Source: a virus (taxonomy: Duplodnaviria; Caudoviricetes). From it: a DNA stretch of 39,901 nucleotides. Positions within the stretch are counted from its first letter, which is position 1; every line of letters starts with the position of its first letter. Positions 25,918-39,880 of this stretch are shown here, piece after piece. The DNA lies in the IMG/VR virus record IMGVR_UViG_3300036821_000055, positions 1-39,901 of that record, one strand, 5' to 3'. Below the pieces are notes generated by a model that saw only the letters and a program-made list of their open reading frames with translations, did not search any database and had not been told where the DNA came from. A program made the translations under genes and the position numbers.

Positions 25918-26289
25918 CTAGCCCCGCATCGTTTTGGAGGTGGCCGCGCCGAGCAGTATCAGCGCGACACCCAGGATGATCAGCCCGACGTAGGGGGCGA
26001 TCAGCCAGCCCCCGACGCTGATCGCGGTGATCCCGGTCAGCTCGAGCACGGTGGAAAACATTTCGGTCCAGTCCCGGCCCGGCTCCGGGGGCAGGTTCTT
26101 TTGGGTGACGACCGGCGCTGCCGGAGCCGGGGCGGGAGACTGGGGTTCGTCGGGTTTACCGGGTTTGTTCATCTGGTCGAGCAGATCCTGCTCGGTGACG
26201 GTGTCGTCGCGGGCGTCGGCGTAAAGTTTGCCGCCGCCGCCGAACCGGAACACGTTCGTCGGGAACGGGCGATTAGGGGAATCGTTCAT
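25918..26289 (-). CDS. Two-TM membrane protein between terminase and portal
   Basis: C-terminal hydrophobic hairpin VLELTGITAISVGGWLIAPYVGLIILGVALILLG; GGAAGGA RBS. Confidence 0.8.
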   Translation of the reverse strand: MNDSPNRPFPTNVFRFGGGGKLYADARDDTVTEQDLLDQMNKPGKPDEPQSPAPAPAAPVVTQKNLPPEPGRDWTEMFSTVLELTGITAISVGGWLIAPYVGLIILGVALILLGAATSKTMRG

Positions 26290-27898
26290 CGGTTTCCTTC
26301 CGCCACGCGTCCAGCGTGTCGTCGTCGGGCCACTCCCACACCGTGGGCGGCCCCGGGATGGGTGGCGGGTTGTTCAGCAGCCACGCCGCCCCGGCCACCG
26401 CGACCAGCGGGGCGGCGTCGACCGGGGAATTCCGCCGGGAAAAGAACCAGGCGTCCCCGGAGTTGGAGGACACGGTGGAGGCGGCGGCCCGGTCCAGCAC
26501 CGACGCGGGCCGGTGTTTGATGGCGCCGTTGACGATGCCGTCGTAGAACTCGCCCGCCCCGCTGGATAGTTGGGCCACCGGCGCGCCCCACTCCACCACA
26601 TCCACACCGGCGGCGCGCAGCTCGTCGATCATCGACGACGCCGGCGCCCCGGTGCGCTGCACGCACAGCCCGGCGAACTTGGTTTTGCGGGCCGCCACCC
26701 ATTCGGGCACCCAGTCGGTGCCCTTCGGCGGGGTTTTCAGGACTTCAACGTGAATCTTCCCGTCGGCGCGGCGTCCCGCCATCCCGATGTAGGCGCGGGT
26801 GCGGTGATAGTTGACGTCCAGGCAGATGTAGGCCGGCTCGTCGTCGGCGCGCGCCGACTCCTTGTCCACCGTGTCGGCCCACGCTTGGGCGGGGATGATG
26901 CCCGGCTGCAGTGAATCCACCCACTGGCACAGGTATTCGGTTTGGAAGCCGGCCATGTCCCCGGCTTCCATCGTTTCCAGCTTGCCCATCAGGTCATCAA
27001 GGCAGAAGTCGTTGAGCAGGCCGAGCGCGGGCTGCGCCAGATGCCAGTAGACGGGGTCGCGGGGATCCACGTCGTCGGGCACCGACCATTCGAAGAACCC
27101 GGTGCGGGTGTTGCCGGTGTGCCGGGTGACGATGGCCCGGATCGCGGTTTCCCGCACGCTGCGCAGCACCACACTGGTCAAATCACCGGCGTTGGAGGTG
27201 ACCAGCAGCTGGCTGCATGAGCGCACCGAGGTGGTCGGTTCGATGGCGCGCCACGCGTCCCACGTTTTGTGGGTGCGCAGCTCGTCGAGCCACGCGAAAT
27301 CCACCGGCAGGCTCCGGCCGCCTGAGGAGTTGGCGGTCACCGCCCGCCACAACCTTCGCCCGGTCAGGATGGCGCGGTGCTTGCCGTTGGTGACGGCGTG
27401 GTTGATCAGCTCCGGCGCCAGCAGCGGATGATCCCGCATCTCGTCGACGCAGTCTTTCAGGGTGGCTTCGGCGTATTCGAGGTTCTGCGCGGCGACGACG
27501 GCGAGTTTCGCGGCGGGCCAGTTGCGGTCGCCGTGACCGGCCTGGTCCATGAACAGCCGCCACAAGCCGAGCCCGCGGCCCCATTTGGTTTTCCCCTGCT
27601 GCCGCCCGACCAGCACGATCAGGGTGTGGAACCGGAACCCGGTGTTGTTGGCGCGTTTCTCCAAACCCCGGTAGTACAACCATTTCTGCCAGGGCAGCAG
27701 ATGCCAGCCCAGGATGACCTCGAGGAAGTAGCAGCACAGCGGACCCCAGGTGGTGTCGTCGGGGCGGTTGATGCCGTCGGCGGGGCCGGCCCTGATCCCG
27801 TATTCGGCGGTCGGGTCGGCGTGCTCCGGCAGTGGCGGGGTGAAAACCCGGGGCAGGGTGGACCCGATCCGGGGATCCAGTTCCAGGGCGGTGCTCAC
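26273..27898 (-). CDS. terL: Terminase large subunit
   Basis: LLPWQ, Walker A GRQQGKT, Walker B AWLDELR, TSNAG, FEWS, TEYLCQW and nuclease CLDV motifs. Confidence 0.95.
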   Translation of the reverse strand: MSTALELDPRIGSTLPRVFTPPLPEHADPTAEYGIRAGPADGINRPDDTTWGPLCCYFLEVILGWHLLPWQKWLYYRGLEKRANNTGFRFHTLIVLVGRQQGKTKWGRGLGLWRLFMDQAGHGDRNWPAAKLAVVAAQNLEYAEATLKDCVDEMRDHPLLAPELINHAVTNGKHRAILTGRRLWRAVTANSSGGRSLPVDFAWLDELRTHKTWDAWRAIEPTTSVRSCSQLLVTSNAGDLTSVVLRSVRETAIRAIVTRHTGNTRTGFFEWSVPDDVDPRDPVYWHLAQPALGLLNDFCLDDLMGKLETMEAGDMAGFQTEYLCQWVDSLQPGIIPAQAWADTVDKESARADDEPAYICLDVNYHRTRAYIGMAGRRADGKIHVEVLKTPPKGTDWVPEWVAARKTKFAGLCVQRTGAPASSMIDELRAAGVDVVEWGAPVAQLSSGAGEFYDGIVNGAIKHRPASVLDRAAASTVSSNSGDAWFFSRRNSPVDAAPLVAVAGAAWLLNNPPPIPGPPTVWEWPDDDTLDAWRKETDERFP

Positions 27899-28777: not shown

Positions 28778-29542
28778 TCACCGGCCGATCGGGAAGCCGT
28801 ACGTGCTCAGTGGGCGGCCCCCGGCTTCGCCCTCTTGGCGCAGCCGCAGAACTTCCCGCATCAGCCATTGTCGCCCGTTGGCGTTCTGATAGGGCGTCAT
28901 CAGCGCCTCGTTGCGGGTGATGTCGCGATCCCAGCCGGGGGAATCAGCTTTCGCGCCGCCGTAGCTGGCGGCGTTGGTGTTGTGCTCGAACGCGTACACC
29001 GGCCCGTGCAGCCGTTTGACCTGCGACAGGGTGGACACGATGGCGGTGAACGCGGTGTCCTCCCAGCCCCAGCCGATGAACTCGGGCGGCTGCCCGCCCA
29101 GGCGCCAGAACTCTCGGCGGGTGGTGATCAGGCAGCCGCCGACCCCGGCGATGCCGTCACCGTCCCAGGTGTTGAGGATCGGCACGCCCGCCAACCGCCG
29201 AAACGGGGTGTGCAGATACTCCGGTGAGATGATCCGGTACTGGTCGAACGGCCAGCACACCCCGCTCGGGTCGGCGACCGCGGCCCGCACATTACCGACT
29301 TCCGGCACCGTGTCCGCGTCGCAGATGACCACCACATCGGTTGTCGCCTGGTGCACCGCGTTGTTCCGGGCCTGCGCCAGCGAGAAGATTTCGGTGTCGG
29401 AGTCGGCGGTGATGACCGGCCAGCGGGGAAAGTATTGCGCCCAGAACTGCATCACCCTCTCGAACAGCGGAATCCGCGACGGCGACGCTCGCCACGGAAC
29501 ACACACACTTGCCCGGGGGCGTCTAGGCATCGTCGTCCTCAT
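28778..29542 (-). CDS. Glycosyltransferase (GT-A, GT2/GT7-like)
   Basis: VCVPWR, FSLAQARN, DxD motif VICDAD, GG..EFIGWGWED. Confidence 0.9.
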   Translation of the reverse strand: MRTTMPRRPRASVCVPWRASPSRIPLFERVMQFWAQYFPRWPVITADSDTEIFSLAQARNNAVHQATTDVVVICDADTVPEVGNVRAAVADPSGVCWPFDQYRIISPEYLHTPFRRLAGVPILNTWDGDGIAGVGGCLITTRREFWRLGGQPPEFIGWGWEDTAFTAIVSTLSQVKRLHGPVYAFEHNTNAASYGGAKADSPGWDRDITRNEALMTPYQNANGRQWLMREVLRLRQEGEAGGRPLSTYGFPIGR

Positions 29543-30170
29543 GCACGTATTTGAACCGTCCCGCCCCGGCCCGGGCCCGCCACACCGATCTGATGGTGGG
29601 CACGTGGACCAGCCTGTGCCCCGCCGCCATCAGCGCGAAGCACTCGTAGATGTCTGCACCCCAGTGCGCGTAGGCGCCGTTGGGGTAGGGGTGGGCGCGC
29701 AGCGCCTCAACGCGCGCCGCGAACACCCCGCCCTGGATGTGGATTTCGGGCAGCGACGCGTCGAAACCCATGTTGGTCGGCGGTCCGGCGCCGGCGATGG
29801 TGCCGGTCATGGCGACGGTGTCGTCGGCGAGCAGCGGGGCGATCAGGTCGGCCAGCCAGCTGCGGTCGTAGCTGTGCCCGTGGTTGGTGCACACATACGC
29901 CAGGTAGGGGCGGCTGGCGAGTTTGATCGCGACGTTCATCGCCGGCCCGAAGTACAGGTTCTCCCCGTTTTGCCAGCAGTAGTAGTGATGTTCGACGCGG
30001 CTGCGGGCCACCGCCTCGGCGAGCCAGTGACACGGCTGTTCGCTGTTGTCGATGACGATCAGCTCGGCGTCGAAGGCGCGCAGCGCGGGCATCAGGTCGC
30101 GGGTCAGCCGGATCAGCGCCTTGTACTCGTTGTTGTAGGCGATCATCACCGCGGAAACCCCGACCGTCAT
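29523..30170 (-). CDS. Glycosyltransferase family 2-like
   Basis: VSAVMIAYN, LIVIDNS, ENLYFGPAMN, WLADL, HIQGGVF, WGAD; the usual DxD site reads CTNH. Confidence 0.8.
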   Translation of the reverse strand: MTVGVSAVMIAYNNEYKALIRLTRDLMPALRAFDAELIVIDNSEQPCHWLAEAVARSRVEHHYYCWQNGENLYFGPAMNVAIKLASRPYLAYVCTNHGHSYDRSWLADLIAPLLADDTVAMTGTIAGAGPPTNMGFDASLPEIHIQGGVFAARVEALRAHPYPNGAYAHWGADIYECFALMAAGHRLVHVPTIRSVWRARAGAGRFKYVHEDDDA

Positions 30171-30688
30171 TTGACCGCCAGCGCGTAGATGTCGGTGGGC
30201 ATGTAGGTGTAGATCGTGCGGTCCCCGAACGGCCCCAGCCACGTGTTCAGCTCCTCGGGGCTCACGTTGCGGTAGAACTCGCCGGCACGCAGCACCCCGC
30301 CGTCAACCGCCGAATGCGGCGCACGGCCGGTCGTGGCGGTGGTCACGATGAACACCCCGCCCGGTGCCAGCAGCCGGTGCGCGTTGGCGCAGATCGCGCC
30401 GGCCTCGTCGGTGTGCTCCAGCGTCTCGCAGCACACCACGGTGTCGACCGGTGTGAACGGCAGCCAGTCCAGCACCTTGGGGAAGTTCGCGGCGTCGGCG
30501 ATCACATCGACGTTCGGGCCCTCGGCGATGTCCACCCCGAGGTAGCGGGCGTCACCGAACAGTGGGCGCACCGGCCCCGAATACGGCCAGTTCCCGGCCA
30601 CCGTGCGGGCGCCGAGCTCGACCACCGACTGCCGCGGCGGCAGCCCCCGCACCGTGGATTCGACGAACTTGTATGCGCCCTCATGCAT
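30167..30688 (-). CDS. Class I SAM-dependent methyltransferase
   Basis: VVELGAR, YLGVDI..GPNVD, DTVVCCETLEH and LAPGGVFIVT motifs. Confidence 0.92.
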   Translation of the reverse strand: MHEGAYKFVESTVRGLPPRQSVVELGARTVAGNWPYSGPVRPLFGDARYLGVDIAEGPNVDVIADAANFPKVLDWLPFTPVDTVVCCETLEHTDEAGAICANAHRLLAPGGVFIVTTATTGRAPHSAVDGGVLRAGEFYRNVSPEELNTWLGPFGDRTIYTYMPTDIYALAVK

Positions 30689-30689
30689 G

Positions 30690-30932
30690 TCAGCGCCCGA
30701 CTACCCGGGCGGCGCCGCAGAACACGCAGCCGCCCTCGGCGAGGAATTCGTGCGGGCATTCGGCGCTGACCGGGGTGGGGATCAGGCCGCGGTAGCTCTC
30801 GCAGCGGCATCGCCTAAACCCGGTGTAGGTTTCCTCCATCTGCGACCAGTCGGTCAGAATCCGCACCCGGCATCCCCGGTCGGTGTGCAGGTTGTGCTGG
30901 TTGACGTCGTGCCCGCAGTTCAGGCATTTCAC
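30690..30932 (-). CDS. Cys/His-rich small protein, probably leaderless
   Basis: CLNCGH...H...C, CRC, CPH...CVFC; GTG lies 7 nt after a putative -10. Confidence 0.7.
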   Translation of the reverse strand: MKCLNCGHDVNQHNLHTDRGCRVRILTDWSQMEETYTGFRRCRCESYRGLIPTPVSAECPHEFLAEGGCVFCGAARVVGR

Positions 30933-30939
30933 GAGGTTT

Positions 30940-30978
30940 ATTGTCGGCCCGACCCGCGCGCCGACCTCGGCGACACGC
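30940..30978 (-). promoter_or_regulatory. Putative late promoter GCGTGTC-N26-GACAAT
   Basis: Fills the short intergenic gap ahead of the methyltransferase-GT-GT-terS operon. Confidence 0.6.
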
Positions 30979-31182
30979 TTACGTCAGTGGCCCGCTGCGG
31001 CAATCCATAGCTAGCCGGTGGCCTAGCCAGAGCATCCCTTGGCAGGTGCAGGGGTTGTCCGCTTCCCGTGGAAAATGGCACTTCATACCGTGATGGCGGG
31101 CGGCGAAGTGACCGCAATCGTCACAGATGCCGCCAGGACCGGTGTCTTGCAAACTAGCTACAGCTTCGGCGGTCGTGGTCAT
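30979..31182 (-). CDS. Small Cys/His zinc-binding-like protein
   Basis: ATGA-coupled start at 31182; CDDCGH...H...C...CTC. Confidence 0.7.
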   Translation of the reverse strand: MTTTAEAVASLQDTGPGGICDDCGHFAARHHGMKCHFPREADNPCTCQGMLWLGHRLAMDCRSGPLT

Positions 31183-31385
31183 TTTTCGGTTTCGATCGTC
31201 CCGAACGCCGGGAAGCTCGGCTTGTTCTGCCGTGCCGTCTCGGCCAGCACGTACTGGTAGTGTTCGCAGTCCGGGGAGCACGGCTGAAACATGAACGCGT
31301 CGTTGCCCATCCAGTCCACGCCGATCGCCATTTCGCAGCCGCAGGGCAGCTTCTCGTGGTTACGGACTTCTTTGAACGTTTTCAT
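31179..31385 (-). CDS. Hypothetical protein
   Basis: 68 aa; LPCGC...PCSPDC. Confidence 0.7.
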   Translation of the reverse strand: MKTFKEVRNHEKLPCGCEMAIGVDWMGNDAFMFQPCSPDCEHYQYVLAETARQNKPSFPAFGTIETEK

Positions 31386-31815
31386 TCTTACTGCGCTCTT
31401 TCATCGCGGCTAAAAACTTGCGGACCTGATCCTCGCGTTTGCGTTTCATGCAATCCGCGCAAAGATCCCCCACGGTCGGCCGCCAGCACGACTGACAGTC
31501 ACTCAGCGGCAGCGGGGTGTACGTCCACGACGTGAAGTCGTCCGGGGTGTAGGTCCGCGTGAACAATGGTGGGTGGGGCGGCTCACCCACCGGCATCGGG
31601 TCACCGAGGGCAGGCACCGAGTAGGGCCGCGGCGGCAACCAGATCGGCTGATCCCGGACCAGCGGCGAGTAATCGGCCGGTTCCTGCGTCCATTCGTTGA
31701 ACCGGGACAATCCCCGCCGCACCCTGCGACGGGTCTCAGGAGCGACCCACCACACGGTGACCGCCGCCTCCACCGCCAGCACCAGCCACTGCCACCACCA
31801 CCCGTGCCACGTCAC
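31360..31815 (-). CDS. Membrane-anchored protein with a C-terminal CxxC pair
   Basis: GTGA-coupled start at 31815; Trp-rich hydrophobic N-terminus; CQSC...CADC. Confidence 0.65.
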   Translation of the reverse strand: MTWHGWWWQWLVLAVEAAVTVWWVAPETRRRVRRGLSRFNEWTQEPADYSPLVRDQPIWLPPRPYSVPALGDPMPVGEPPHPPLFTRTYTPDDFTSWTYTPLPLSDCQSCWRPTVGDLCADCMKRKREDQVRKFLAAMKERSKNENVQRSP

Positions 31816-32477
31816 GGCTGACTCCACTCGTTGCAGTGTCCCAGCGGCACCGCCGGGGTGTCCCAGTTCTCCCGCGTCCCGTAACTCCACGCCCGCCGGA
31901 TGCTGCGCGGCTGCCCGGGCGGATGCCCGATCGGTTCGGCGTCGGCGTGGTTGACCAGCGACGGCACCGTGTAGCAGATTTTCACGCCCCAGTCCTGCGC
32001 CCAGCGGGAGATCCGCAGCGGCAGTTCGCCCATGCGCGCCGTGATGGTGGGCAGCATGTCGGCGATCAGGCTGGTGCGGATGACGTAGCCGACCGACCCG
32101 ATCAGGCAGTCCGCGGTGATCCACGCGTAGTTGTGCCGGGCCGCCACAATGGTCGCCGCCCGGATCTGGCGCTGCGGCTGACCGGACGGGTTCCCGGTGC
32201 CCAGATACAAGCCCACAATCAAGCCCGGCGTGTGCGCCAGGGCGTGTTTCACATGAAACCGGAAGTCGTCGACCGGTTCGGCGTCGTCCTCGAGGATCAC
32301 GCACCAGTCGAAGCCGGTCAGCGCGAGTGTTCGCAGCACCCGCAGGTGGTTGCCCTCGCATCCCAGGGTGCCGTTGTCGAAGCTGACCAGGTTCGCGTTC
32401 ACGTCGACCCGCTCGGCGAGCTCGTTCGCCGCCTTGCGGCGGGACTCGTGGGCGACCACGGCGACACCGATACTCAC
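31812..32477 (-). CDS. Glycosyltransferase (mycobacteriophage GT-A type)
   Basis: VVAH..R, LGCEGNH, ILEDDA, LYLG and YTVPSLVNHAD motifs. Confidence 0.85.
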   Translation of the reverse strand: MSIGVAVVAHESRRKAANELAERVDVNANLVSFDNGTLGCEGNHLRVLRTLALTGFDWCVILEDDAEPVDDFRFHVKHALAHTPGLIVGLYLGTGNPSGQPQRQIRAATIVAARHNYAWITADCLIGSVGYVIRTSLIADMLPTITARMGELPLRISRWAQDWGVKICYTVPSLVNHADAEPIGHPPGQPRSIRRAWSYGTRENWDTPAVPLGHCNEWSQP

Positions 32478-32483
32478 GGTCGG

Positions 32484-32777
32484 TCATTCTGCGTGCCGGT
32501 CGGCGAACACATGCCAGATCAGTCCCGACGGGGTGACGACGGTGCCGATGAAATCCATCCCCATCGGGCCGGGATCGGGCATCGGGTTGCCGGTGCCGAC
32601 GACGTAGATCGTGCGGGTGATGTCCTGCGCGCCCGTCCTCGCTACCGTCCACAGGTCGATGCCGTGATCGGGCACTTCGCGGGACTGCGCCACCGACAGG
32701 ATGCGTCCCGGCGCGGGCACTTCGAGGTACTGCAGATCGGTGATGCCGATCGACCAGCGCAGAATACGTGATGTCAC
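32484..32777 (-). CDS. Conserved small phage protein (DUF7352-like)
   Basis: GTGA-coupled; ILSV...LW...R.IYVVGTG...FIGTV...WHVF pattern recognised from memory. Confidence 0.65.
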   Translation of the reverse strand: MTSRILRWSIGITDLQYLEVPAPGRILSVAQSREVPDHGIDLWTVARTGAQDITRTIYVVGTGNPMPDPGPMGMDFIGTVVTPSGLIWHVFADRHAE

Positions 32778-33412
32778 GCCGCCACCGCCGCCGGGGGACG
32801 CCGCCCTTGATGCACGTTGGCGACCCGGCAGAACGCGCGCTCGTCGGTCATCAGCGCCAGCAGCTGGCTCAAATGCACATCGGCCTCCGGCAGCCAGGTG
32901 CTGTACATGTCGGGGTGCGCGCACAACCGGCCGCCCACCGTGCCGTCCGGTTTGATCCACTCGATGTTGCCCGCCACGCCCCGGTTGACCCGGTACAGGG
33001 TGCCGTGCGAGCCGATTATCTCGAAGCTGCCGACCAGCCGGTAACGCTGCACCTGCTCGGGCGGCAGCATCGATTCGAGCAGCGCGGCGGCGCGGTCCTG
33101 GGCGGCGGTGCGGGCCACCGCACGCTCATCACGTGCGGCGCGCAACGCTTCAGCCCCCGGCCCGGCCCGGCCGCCGCCCGCCCCACCATCGCTGATCGTA
33201 ACGCCGCCGCCCCAGGTCAGCGGCAGGCCGTTGTAGGTCATCACGTGCCACCCGCCGTCACCACCGCTGCCGCTCGTGTTGTTCGACGTCCACCGATTCT
33301 CGCGAGGCCACCAATCGGAGGTGGTGGTGGAGGTCAGCCACGTCGCCGACACCACGTACTGGTGCTCCCAATCGTCGTTGATGACATTGCCGCCCCAGTC
33401 GTGGATCGGCAT
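32774..33412 (-). CDS. Hypothetical protein, partner of the GG-terminated protein; single core Cys in LCAHP
   Basis: TAATG coupling to the upstream gene; Trp/Thr-rich low-complexity N-terminus, then a compact domain GSHGTLYRV...GNI...LCAHP...D..LSQLLAL.TDE. Confidence 0.8.
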   Translation of the reverse strand: MPIHDWGGNVINDDWEHQYVVSATWLTSTTTSDWWPRENRWTSNNTSGSGGDGGWHVMTYNGLPLTWGGGVTISDGGAGGGRAGPGAEALRAARDERAVARTAAQDRAAALLESMLPPEQVQRYRLVGSFEIIGSHGTLYRVNRGVAGNIEWIKPDGTVGGRLCAHPDMYSTWLPEADVHLSQLLALMTDERAFCRVANVHQGRRPPAAVAA

Positions 33413-33642
33413 TAGCCACCGACGGTCTGCCGGGTGGCGATGATCCGCTCCGCGTGCGGGTCGAACTCGCGCAGCTGCTCGGCGCGTGACCCGTCGGCGC
33501 GGGTCTTGTAGATCAGCATCTTCTTGTCCTTGGCGGCCTTGAACGCCTTACGGGCCATCTCAACCTCGTCGGGATCGCTCGGGTTCCACTCGATGCGGGT
33601 GTCACCGGTCCCGTCCAGCACAGACAGCGAATTGGTCATCAT
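33412..33642 (-). CDS. 76-aa protein ending in Gly-Gly; possible beta-grasp / ubiquitin-like
   Basis: Strong AAGGAAAGGA RBS; ends RQTVGG-stop; fold inferred from the sequence pattern only. Confidence 0.7.
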   Translation of the reverse strand: MMTNSLSVLDGTGDTRIEWNPSDPDEVEMARKAFKAAKDKKMLIYKTRADGSRAEQLREFDPHAERIIATRQTVGG

Positions 33643-33889
33643 TTTCCTTTCCTTGGCGCGCGATTTCCTCTTTCCAGGCCGCCAGCGCGGCATCAACTTC
33701 GGTCTTGCCCGTCTCGGCTTTGAACAGATCGGCGAGCATGTGGAACATCTCCTGCCGGTCCAGCGCCTCGACCGTCTCGTCCTCGATGTCGGGCGGGTCC
33801 GGCACGTTGGTGCCGCCCTTGACCACCTGCAGAATCCCCATCGCCCCGGCGGCGATCGCCATCACGTCACCCACGTAGTCGTCCTTCAT
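33602..33889 (-). CDS. Hypothetical protein
   Basis: AGGGG RBS before ATG 33889; 95 aa. Confidence 0.65.
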   Translation of the reverse strand: MKDDYVGDVMAIAAGAMGILQVVKGGTNVPDPPDIEDETVEALDRQEMFHMLADLFKAETGKTEVDAALAAWKEEIARQGKENDDQFAVCAGRDR

Positions 33890-35010: not shown

Positions 35011-35379
35011 GTGCCGGTGGCCGACCCGGACAGCACGTTTGGTGTGGTGGTGGTATGCGGGTTCTTCGCCTGGATGTTGATGGGCTGGCTGGCGGTGGAC
35101 TGGTACATGTGGCACCACGTGCCCAGGCCCTGCGTGCACCGCGTCGCCTGGGATGGCGTTTATCACGGCGGCGAGACACCTGACGGTGTGCCGCCGATCC
35201 CGCCGCTGTTTCGCCGACCCGAGCCGGTCGCGGGCCGCGTCGATGAGTACGGCCGGTACGAGACCATCTACCGGGTCACAAGCCTGCCGCAGTACCCGCT
35301 CGATTTCGGTGAACCCACCTGGGGCGGTGAGATGGTACGCACCATCCAATCGCAGCTCTACAACAACAGGGAGATATGA
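35011..35379 (+). CDS. Membrane protein
   Basis: N-terminal TM segment FGVVVVCGFFAWMLMGWLAV; ends 1 nt before the methyltransferase start. Confidence 0.65.
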   Translation: MPVADPDSTFGVVVVCGFFAWMLMGWLAVDWYMWHHVPRPCVHRVAWDGVYHGGETPDGVPPIPPLFRRPEPVAGRVDEYGRYETIYRVTSLPQYPLDFGEPTWGGEMVRTIQSQLYNNREI

Positions 35380-35380
35380 C

Positions 35381-36208
35381 ATGGCTGAGCACATGCGGGT
35401 GTGGAAAGCCGACGACCCGAACAGCCCGTTCGCGTCCGGTGGGGCGTTCCAGTTCACCGTCCAAGACGCCGACGAGCTCGTCAAGGAGGCATCCGAGAAT
35501 TTCGTGCACCACCAGGGCGAGGCGTGGAAACAGGTGCGGCGGTGGGCCGACGACCAGATGGAGCTGATCGAGGTCGAGGAGGGCGGCTCCCCCAACGGGC
35601 CCGGCGCCAGCCTGTCGCTGACCGAGAACCTGCGCAAGGAGCTGCCCAAGCTGTGGGCGCGGCACAACATCAAATCGGTGTGCGACGTGGCGTGCGGCGA
35701 CTGGAACTGGATGCGGTATGTCGACCTGTCCGGCATCACCAACTATTTCGGCTGGGACATCGACCCCGAACTCATCACCCGCTGCCAGAAGCGGGTGGGG
35801 AAGCTGCTGACACCGGACGGATACAAAGACGGTGGGGGTGGCTGGCCGAAGCCGTTCCCGCACACCTGGTTCGAGGTCCGCAACATCATCGACACCAACT
35901 TCCCCAACGTCGATTGCATCCTGGCCCGCCACATCCTGATGCACCTGCCCAACGACTACATCACCGCGGTGCTGGACAAGATGCGGGCCAGCCACGCCAA
36001 ATACCTGTTGACCAGCAACTTCCCCGACGCCACCAACGACTTCGTGTACGACCCCACCCGCTACGCGTGGATCGGCTACATGGAGCACCCCGTCAACCTG
36101 GAGGAACCACCGTTCGACCTTCAGGGCCGCCTCGACGCGATCCAGGAGGCCACCGGCCCGGCCGGGGTGCTCACCAGCCCGCACGAGCTGGTCCTGTACA
36201 AGCTATGA
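35381..36208 (+). CDS. Class I SAM-dependent methyltransferase
   Basis: GGAG RBS; NGPGAS..TENLR, IKSVCDVACGDWNWM, YFGWDI, DCILARHILMHL and KYLLTSNF motifs. Confidence 0.9.
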   Translation: MAEHMRVWKADDPNSPFASGGAFQFTVQDADELVKEASENFVHHQGEAWKQVRRWADDQMELIEVEEGGSPNGPGASLSLTENLRKELPKLWARHNIKSVCDVACGDWNWMRYVDLSGITNYFGWDIDPELITRCQKRVGKLLTPDGYKDGGGGWPKPFPHTWFEVRNIIDTNFPNVDCILARHILMHLPNDYITAVLDKMRASHAKYLLTSNFPDATNDFVYDPTRYAWIGYMEHPVNLEEPPFDLQGRLDAIQEATGPAGVLTSPHELVLYKL

Positions 36209-39308: not shown

Positions 39309-39518
39309 TCATCTTGGTGGCGCTTGGGTGGTAATGAAACGTTGAATCTCATCGAGGGCCGCCCGGTAACCGTTCCAGTAGTTCAGCAGCCGCTCCGTAT
39401 CGGTGAACACGGGGACCGTCCTCGCCTTGAACGGCAGGTCATCAATCGACCGCAGCGCCCGCTCCGAGCGTCGATGCATGTCCGCCAACTGGTCGGCTAG
39501 CCCGCCGGCATCCGCCAT
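39309..39518 (-). CDS. Hypothetical protein
   Basis: GAGGAGG RBS, 69 aa. Confidence 0.65.
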   Translation of the reverse strand: MADAGGLADQLADMHRRSERALRSIDDLPFKARTVPVFTDTERLLNYWNGYRAALDEIQRFITTQAPPR

Positions 39519-39880
39519 TCGTCGTCCTCCTCACCGCCGTAGGCCCACCACGGGCGCATCCCCGCGGTCAGATCGGTGACCGCCTCAGCGTGACCCTTGA
39601 CCGCTTCAGCCTCGGTGCAATACCGCATCATGTGCTCATCGAACTCGCCGCCGAAGATCATGGTTTCGAAGATCACCGGCCGGTAGTTGTCGGGATCGCC
39701 GAAATTGAAGCCGTGGTCCATGCCCAGCCACACCGTGGAAATCTTGGCCTCCCCCACGGTGTCCTCCCCGACCCGCACGTAGGAGTTGGGGCCGTAATGC
39801 CCGTCCGGGTCCAGCCCGCGTTCCCGCAGCTCACCCCACCGCCGTATCGAGATCGGTTCACCCTGCCTGTCGAAATGCAT
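39497..39880 (-). CDS. Conserved phage hypothetical protein
   Basis: ISTVWLGMDH...FETMIFGG...RY.T..EA..GH pattern seen in many phages. Confidence 0.75.
   Translation of the reverse strand: MHFDRQGEPISIRRWGELRERGLDPDGHYGPNSYVRVGEDTVGEAKISTVWLGMDHGFNFGDPDNYRPVIFETMIFGGEFDEHMMRYCTEAEAVKGHAEAVTDLTAGMRPWWAYGGEEDDEWRMPAG

Follow-up and report, generated by a model that had tools for sequence, protein, structure and literature searches.

The bacterial ubiquitin-like (Ubl) conjugation systems compared here are host defence operons, nearly all of them with an E1 of their own, as far as the accessible parts of the cited sources describe them. Bil and Bub operons encode an E1 and a peptidase, and Bub uses Ser/Tyr oxyesters (PMC11601596, accessible text). 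All five operon types 6a-6e centre on an E1-like enzyme, which a JAB usually accompanies, and the accessible portion of their description contains no two-gene unit of a Ubl and an E2 (PMC1779556). E2-only CBASS dispenses with the E1: in the parts of the reports available, unaided, the Serratia E2 cleaves off E407 or a fused protein to form the G406-C101 thioester (10.1101/2022.05.25.493364; PMC12948482), a reaction for which a leaving residue after the reactive Gly and an essential His are needed (10.1101/2022.05.25.493364). A further point of reference is provided by the sulfur carriers MoaD, ThiS and CysO (PF02597), which are activated by MoeB, ThiF and MoeZ (PF00899). Here we describe a two-gene unit, largely phage-borne, in which a small Gly-Gly-ended protein is coupled to a partner with a conserved Cys.

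The unit lies in a 39.9-kb linear virus fragment, 38% complete, the whole of which (39,901 nucleotides) was analysed and is referred to as the window; its sequence is present in four soil DNA runs, with no RNA run among the matches listed. Gene families for portal, prohead protease, capsid and Sipho_Gp37, glycosyl- and methyltransferases, weak matches to tail-tube and Phage_gene29 proteins and the high GC content suggest that the virus is an actinobacterial siphovirus. A 541-aa ORF at 26,273-27,898 (minus strand), which lies just upstream of the portal region and has the Walker A/B-like motifs GRQQGKT and AWLDE, looks like the large terminase; it has no NCBIfam match, and PF03354 is without a match in the whole record. 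Three glycosyltransferase-like genes and a methyltransferase occupy 28,781-32,477 (minus), immediately upstream of the packaging genes, and a second methyltransferase lies on the strand opposite to this cluster (35,153-36,205, plus).

Small minus-strand genes surround the pair itself, which lies upstream of the packaging genes and overlaps a DUF7352 gene downstream and an unknown 95-aa ORF upstream. An earlier note on this DNA had described a 76-aa ORF ending in RQTVGG, a 212-aa partner with a Cys and a TAATG overlap between the two genes, all of which we confirm, on the minus strand (Table 1). The second ATG is at least as likely to be the start of the small gene, since most close homologues are 75 aa long and begin with MT. 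GC3 is 0.88 in both reading frames, and a promoter scan gave no signal above shuffles.

Table 1. Coordinates of the gene pair and its features within the window
Feature	Position	Strand	Details
Small Gly-Gly-ended protein, predicted divergent beta-grasp	33412..33642	-	76 aa (75 aa from second ATG, 33639); ends RQTVGG, then stop
Purine-rich RBS-like stretch	33643..33654	-	AAGGAAAGGAAA; then ATG ATG
Gly75-Gly76 codons	33415..33420	-	Last Gly in 143/143 aligned rows, penultimate in 138/143
TAATG stop/start overlap coupling both genes	33410..33414	-	Junction GGC TAATG
Partner gene	32774..33412	-	212 aa; contains GNIEWIKPDGTVGGRLCAHP; single lysine K154
Partner N-terminal arm, approximately residues 1-74	33191..33412	-	Thr/Ser/Trp/Gly-rich, no lysine
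Partner C-terminal domain, residues 94-212	32777..33133	-	Two helices, four-strand meander, long helix; weak E2/RWD-like match
Cys164, end of strand 4, presumed catalytic	32921..32923	-	83/84 and 125/126 rows
Asp178	32879..32881	-	82/84 rows

We read the small protein as a divergent beta-grasp outside any named Ubl family. Its AF2 model (pLDDT 89) has predicted strands at residues 4-10, 13-19, 43-47, 54-56 and 66-70 and a helix at 24-39, corresponding to the order beta-beta-alpha-beta-beta-beta. Nearly all of the 48 Foldseek rows shown were beta-grasp proteins (PB1, SUMO, ubiquitin, RA and bacterial Ubl), the best with E 6e-3 and TM of about 0.45. In VIA, protein L ranked first (Z 5.2), ubiquitin-like and PB1 domains reached Z 4.0-4.6, and chain C of the Bub structure 9eav was matched with Z 3.7 (rmsd 3.9, 63 residues aligned). 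The beta-grasp topology proposed in the earlier note is thus supported by the AF2 strand order and by both structural searches, although all scores are weak. No convincing family was found for the small protein or the partner in Pfam, PHROG and NCBIfam scans, profile searches of PDB sequences gave no credible match for either, and member-wise Pfam scans (143 small proteins, 84 partners) returned scattered weak matches only.

A profile built from 14 close homologues matched, at a cut-off of E <= 0.001, 1,739 representatives of clusters at 50% identity. Among the best 150 of these, 138 end in GG, 7 carry GG followed by an extension of 1 to about 140 residues, and 3 end in SG or AG; the remaining two are a PG-plus-tail form and a false positive. 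By comparison, the fetched loci, family members included, contain 15,861 stop-to-stop frames, of which 362 end in GG; the GG end of the family is thus far above chance. The last Gly is the invariant one in the 143-row alignment, as expected if the terminal carboxylate is activated.

The tail also resembles that of the sulfur carriers. Pro occupies position -6 in 115 of the 138 GG-ended family tails and in 7 of 12 PF02597 (ThiS-family) carriers from four pair-holding host genomes, and tails such as LVPQIAGG, FFPPAAGG and LVPPVAGG in the family are alike to the host carrier tails ILPAVAGG, FFPPVTGG and ILPQIAGG. This likeness is consistent with the borrowing of a host MoeB or MoeZ for activation. 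The body of the small protein, in contrast, is far from MoaD/ThiS (Z 3.6 to MoaD; Atlas score 0.76), for which reason host MoeB might reject it, and none of the 143 members matched PF02597 at E <= 0.1.

Several unusual forms of the small gene were encountered. One variant (P0150) continues in frame for ~140 residues after GG, another (P0102) has a tandem two-domain form, and a long open frame ending in LSGG (L210:3481-4311) is followed directly by a partner. In Virus Rctr197k (KX853510.1; L143:11800-14974), the N-terminally extended homologue Rctr197k_113 ends in STIPG and two partner paralogues lie downstream, the region being flanked by two annotated CRISPR arrays and transposase-like genes.

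The C-terminal domain of the partner was modelled at pLDDT 96, with two helices and a four-strand meander that ends in Cys164 and leads into the long helix. Foldseek against the PDB gave no match (best E 0.3). In VIA, run over 48,161 chains, an RWD domain was the top match (Z 5.2, rmsd 3.5, 94 residues aligned), and the first 6 and 23 of the best 50 rows in all were RWD, UEV, E2 or FANCL entries by title, whereas MoaE, ThiG and rhodanese were not represented among these 50. Lower-scoring matches included the E2-CBASS entry 8hsb_B (99 residues aligned at rmsd 5.0, Z 3.2) and chain D of Bub 9eav (85 residues at rmsd 4.4, Z 3.0), and three E2 entries ranked first in a second structural look (Z 2.9). 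VIA's own bar for unrelated best hits, a Z of about 8, is above all of these scores. What speaks for an E2-like fold is therefore the enrichment and its agreement with the beta-grasp small protein: the two models, independently, fall on ubiquitin-system entries, including two chains of Bub 9eav. The predicted fold of the partner domain is thus, weakly, E2/RWD-like.

Conservation in this domain is concentrated on a few positions. Across 84 aligned partners, Cys164 is present in 83, Asp178 in 82 and His166 in 66; among 126 pairs less than 80% identical to each other, counted with profiles built partly from the same loci, the Cys occurs in 125 and a His at Cys+2 in 85. None of the 84 members matched the Pfam families UQ_con or Prok-E2 at E <= 0.1. 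In canonical E2 enzymes, the Asn of the HPN motif precedes the catalytic Cys by about 8 residues. The order in the partner is G-N, 15 residues, then C-x-H-P, with Asn149 lying 15 residues ahead of Cys164, and the HPN mapping fails because the His-Pro comes after the Cys. Of the E2-like partner postulated in the earlier note, the structural part gains from the VIA enrichment for RWD, UEV and E2 entries and loses from the missing Foldseek match, while the likeness of its N-I...DG...LC spacing to HPN...G.IC is unsupported.

Some covalent chemistry at Gly76 and Cys164 is quite probable, although we infer every chemical step. The opposing reading is that the two proteins merely bind each other, for example as effector and regulator, with a Cys that is structural or metal-binding; as a variant, the T/W-rich arm, for example, might self-assemble or a hydrophobic arm might anchor the module in the membrane. 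The weak fold scores agree with such a non-covalent module, as do the best fold matches of the partner, RWD domains, which are non-catalytic E2-fold domains according to the accessible text of PMC1779556, and the few small proteins that end otherwise, STIPG in Rctr197k_113 among them. However, it leaves the joint conservation of a free Gly and a lone Cys over 126 divergent pairs unexplained, and a metal site would have to be formed with neither a second conserved Cys nor an invariant His, both of which are missing from the 84 partner rows; we consider it quite unlikely.

The N-terminal arms of the phage partners are rich in Thr, Ser, Trp, Tyr, Asn and Gln and poor in lysine. Lysine is absent from 50 of the 78 arms of at least 40 aa (with boundaries set automatically), and in the 22 loci below 52% GC it accounts for 10.1% of the residues in the domain but for 1.2% of those in the arm, with Arg, Asp and Glu at 4-5% of the same arms. 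The depletion is thus not due to GC bias, as it persists in these low-GC loci. In this respect the arm is reminiscent of lysine-depleted stretches of some E3 ligases, where they limit self-modification; such regions are also common in actinobacteria and their phages, for reasons described as unsettled in the accessible part of the source (PMC13696103). The arm may also be merely a polar low-complexity segment.

Linkage between the two genes was assessed from both sides. Starting from the small gene, with a pattern that required a GG-stop and a set that holds a few duplicates, the partner was found downstream in 77 of 80 flanked phage loci, and the 3 misses end at a contig edge; 21 more loci were short of flank. 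The reverse search used a pattern blind to both the Cys and the GG and yielded 49 loci, all true partner matches and 16 of them already in the earlier set. Leaving out 4 without upstream DNA, a Gly-ended ORF lay upstream in 45 of 45 evaluable loci (42 GG, 1 SG, 2 AG), and 44 of these ORFs match the small-protein profile, the exception being a 112-aa ORF ending in LVGG (L214). A related-locus search started from the single partner sequence gave no matches. Duplications often copy both genes, as in three pairs at L049, two at L065 and five in genome G002; uneven arrays also occur, with one small gene and three partners at L162 and one and two at L072, and a solo small gene was seen once (L014/L140). 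Small-protein and partner trees are correlated (mirror-tree r = 0.40, shuffled maximum 0.19), which is expected from linkage alone and is not taken as evidence.

No third gene is shared to a similar extent. After antisense shadows of the pair had been set aside, no other family was found in more than 11 of 89 loci. Neither neighbour clustering over these loci nor a Pfam scan, which covered 130 of 166 candidate neighbours, disclosed a recurring E1, peptidase, synthase or cyclase or a recurring target or unfoldase gene, and there was no CD-NTase among the 130 scanned phage neighbours. In 9 of the 89 loci, several of which are related phages, a member of an unnamed 127-aa family, encoded in the window at 39,497-39,880 (minus), is found no more than 6.5 kb from the pair. 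A single-domain AAA ATPase adjoins the pair or lies within ~1.5 kb of it at four loci (L001:3461-4930, L053:3801-5381, L055:7500-9086 and L162:303-1787); it was rejected as a third conserved gene, the family being present in 7 of 50 records only, and in this subgroup it could be an unfoldase for tagged proteins.

An E1 was sought in whole phage records as well. The window record, itself a 38%-complete fragment, has no ThiF/E1 match. Among the 50 longest of about 95 distinct carrier records, ThiF was matched in 3, one of them among the 26 near-complete ones, and on inspection none is the E1 of the pair. Two of the matches belong to separate operons 25-28 kb away from the pair, in which JAB is also weakly matched; the third gene looks similar to a sugar epimerase. 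The two separate operons, in the large phages of L165 (G024) and L166 (G028), the latter with a small ORF ending in TKGC, are presumably phage-borne PRTRC/Bub-type systems. Prok-JAB exceeded the cut-off in 1 of the 50 records, ~2.4 kb from the pair with three genes between. This phage (G035:C1; L168, L010) has two pairs, at 70,600-74,200 and 47,100-47,800, of which the canonical one is that close to the JAB, while in the divergent one the small protein ends in GGC and the Cys register of the partner is doubtful. The absence of E1 and JAB genes remarked on in the earlier note is accordingly borne out, with no true E1 in 26 near-complete carrier phages, and so are the GG end (138 of 150), the Cys (125 of 126) and the gene linkage (77 of 80 and 45 of 45) on whose conservation its proposal turned.

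The mechanism that fits best is conjugation activated by a host E1 and carried out by a minimal E2/E3-like partner, to which we give close to an even chance. It is favoured by the invariant free Gly, the MoaD-like tail, the lone Cys on a putatively E2-like scaffold, the strict pairing and the lack of a private E1. In the first step, a host enzyme of the MoeB/ThiF type would adenylate the small protein at its free Gly76; transfer to Cys164 of the partner would then give a thioester, and the partner would finally attach the small protein to a lysine of the target. Selection of the target or location could be the task of the variable N-terminal part, in which case one protein would act as both E2 and E3. 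For the phage, the likeliest purpose would be the modification of a host or phage protein during infection.

An activating enzyme might not be needed at all. In an E1-free transpeptidation, Cys164 would attack a peptide bond near the tail end, release the last residue or residues, form the thioester without ATP and ligate the tag to lysine. Serratia E2-CBASS sets the precedent, with 8hsb_B among the fold matches of the partner (Z 3.2); carrier phages have no E1; a His two residues past the Cys is found in 85 of 126 pairs; and GG-plus-extension forms occur without a neighbouring JAB. Yet 138 of the best 150 small proteins have a free GG end and hence no leaving residue, the His is absent from 41 of the 126 pairs, and it is the last Gly, not the penultimate, that is invariant. 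We rate this reaction as unlikely, and host-E1 activation remains our preferred reading.

The earlier note took the pair to be phage-encoded, which holds for most of the family. The Atlas clusters of the small protein are 71-83% viral, and the phage pairs sit among variable accessory genes. Cultured phage collections, in contrast to the size of the family (1,739 clusters), have almost none: tblastn against INPHARED gave no match with the window proteins or L050 and, with other members, only Virus Rctr197k and one uncultured phage, and a BFVD match to Agrobacterium phage Atu_ph07 (E 0.013) is absent from the tblastn matches listed. Bacterial genomes also carry the pair, which is therefore not phage-only. 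In two Alphaproteobacteria MAGs, 5 and 2 linked pairs, respectively, lie next to IS elements and ordinary genes, and eleven Bradyrhizobium plasmids match the partner, the sole query in that search; these plasmid copies constitute cultured material for experiments. Among 401 sampled actinobacterial genomes, from the phylum to which the Pseudonocardiaceae MAG G004 belongs, 29 match the partner, a tally that includes G004 and the unpublished G136, whose locus was left out of the analysis. At 18 of these loci that were examined, the small gene was recognised by profile in 12 and by inspection in 5; L230:1054-1827 encodes a partner in which Ser takes the place of the Cys, and upstream of it no GG gene was detected. 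Many chromosomal partners begin, on inspection, with a hydrophobic and possibly membrane-spanning segment in place of the T/W arm (L134, L138, L218-L221, L233-L236).

Chromosomal copies occupy fixed sites in two groups, one between thiD and ilvD and the other between SCP2 and glyoxalase genes. Within the thiD group, some genomes encode a tail that stops at GG, whereas in others 1-9 residues follow the GG, implying that a host peptidase or the partner itself trims the tail. The position directly after thiD and single loci beside moeA and near a class-V aminotransferase would suit a sulfur relay, in which host MoeB/MoeZ-rhodanese thiocarboxylates the small protein and the partner Cys receives or hands on the sulfur as a persulfide, conjugation being secondary. 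Urm1 is a precedent for a sulfur carrier with secondary conjugation, and the MoaD/CysO-like tails point the same way. On the other side, neither the 130 phage neighbours nor neighbour clustering yielded a recurring sulfur-using synthase, the predicted partner fold resembles E2/RWD entries, with no MoaE, ThiG or rhodanese among the 50 best rows, and chromosomal neighbours vary between groups (SCP2/glyoxalase, uvrD, lysR, IS elements). A sulfur relay thus appears rather unlikely.

The same distribution bears on a counter-defence decoy, the other option raised at the outset, in which the small protein occupies, and the partner Cys drains, the E1/E2 of Bil or type II CBASS. Predominantly viral clusters, an accessory-gene setting and paralogue arrays suggestive of diversification are compatible with such a role. 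A pure decoy is, however, weakened by the chromosomal copies, since several of the 29 actinobacterial genomes have the partner at fixed sites among housekeeping genes, and a sink needs no strict one-to-one pairing with a GG protein of its own. What survives of the decoy proposal is, in our view, distinctly improbable.

Taken with the preferred host-E1 reading, these data permit a broader proposal, which we put forward tentatively and hold to be plausible, if somewhat short of an even chance. A minimal E2/RWD domain of ~110 residues with a relocated Cys would be the whole ligase of a very large two-gene Ubl family, which would use a host sulfur-carrier activating enzyme or none, pick targets through swappable arms, spread with phages of soil and sediment and become domesticated on chromosomes. 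If true, a two-gene phage version would put Ubl conjugation on the virus side and show how little machinery suffices. Bacteria would have a Ubl conjugation system that is encoded by viruses, and this system would be an extant example of the transition between MoeB/MoaD sulfur chemistry and E2-based tagging; the long-standing evolutionary question of whether a sulfur-carrier-activating enzyme can feed a stand-alone E2 would become directly testable with two small proteins.

In the literature searched, consisting of main texts with few subscription journals covered, the pair is undescribed, and its relation to known systems can be stated as follows, within what the accessible parts of the sources report. 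Like Bil (BilABCD) and Bub, it combines a free-standing, predicted Ubl with a terminal Gly and a putative E2-fold protein, the 9eav chains being weakly matched (PMC11601596), but it has a Cys, no linked E1 or JAB and no sequence-level match to these systems, and it is largely phage-borne. With the Serratia CdnG-E2 type of E2-only CBASS it shares a stand-alone Cys-containing protein, here with a putative E2 fold, a Gly-ended partner and the lack of an E1 gene; there, however, a CD-NTase serves as donor, a residue follows its Gly, and the His is indispensable (10.1101/2022.05.25.493364; PMC12948482), whereas here the donor would be a 75-aa protein with a predicted beta-grasp and a free GG end, and the His is not always kept. 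In operon types 6a-6e, too, divergent E2-like proteins, among them one whose Cys is followed by a conserved His, lie next to small Gly-ended Ubls (PMC1779556). MoaD, ThiS and CysO have in common with the small protein the beta-grasp, which is predicted for the latter, the GG and closely alike last eight residues; they differ in that none of 143 members matches PF02597, no synthase recurs as a neighbour and the fixed partner is weakly E2/RWD-like. RWD and UEV domains (GCN2, RWDD1/2, FANCL, Tsg101) are the best structural neighbours of the partner domain and are without a catalytic Cys, whereas the partner keeps its Cys in 125 of 126 pairs. As compared here, the pair would work like Bil, Bub or E2-CBASS, but it is outside each of them by operon content.
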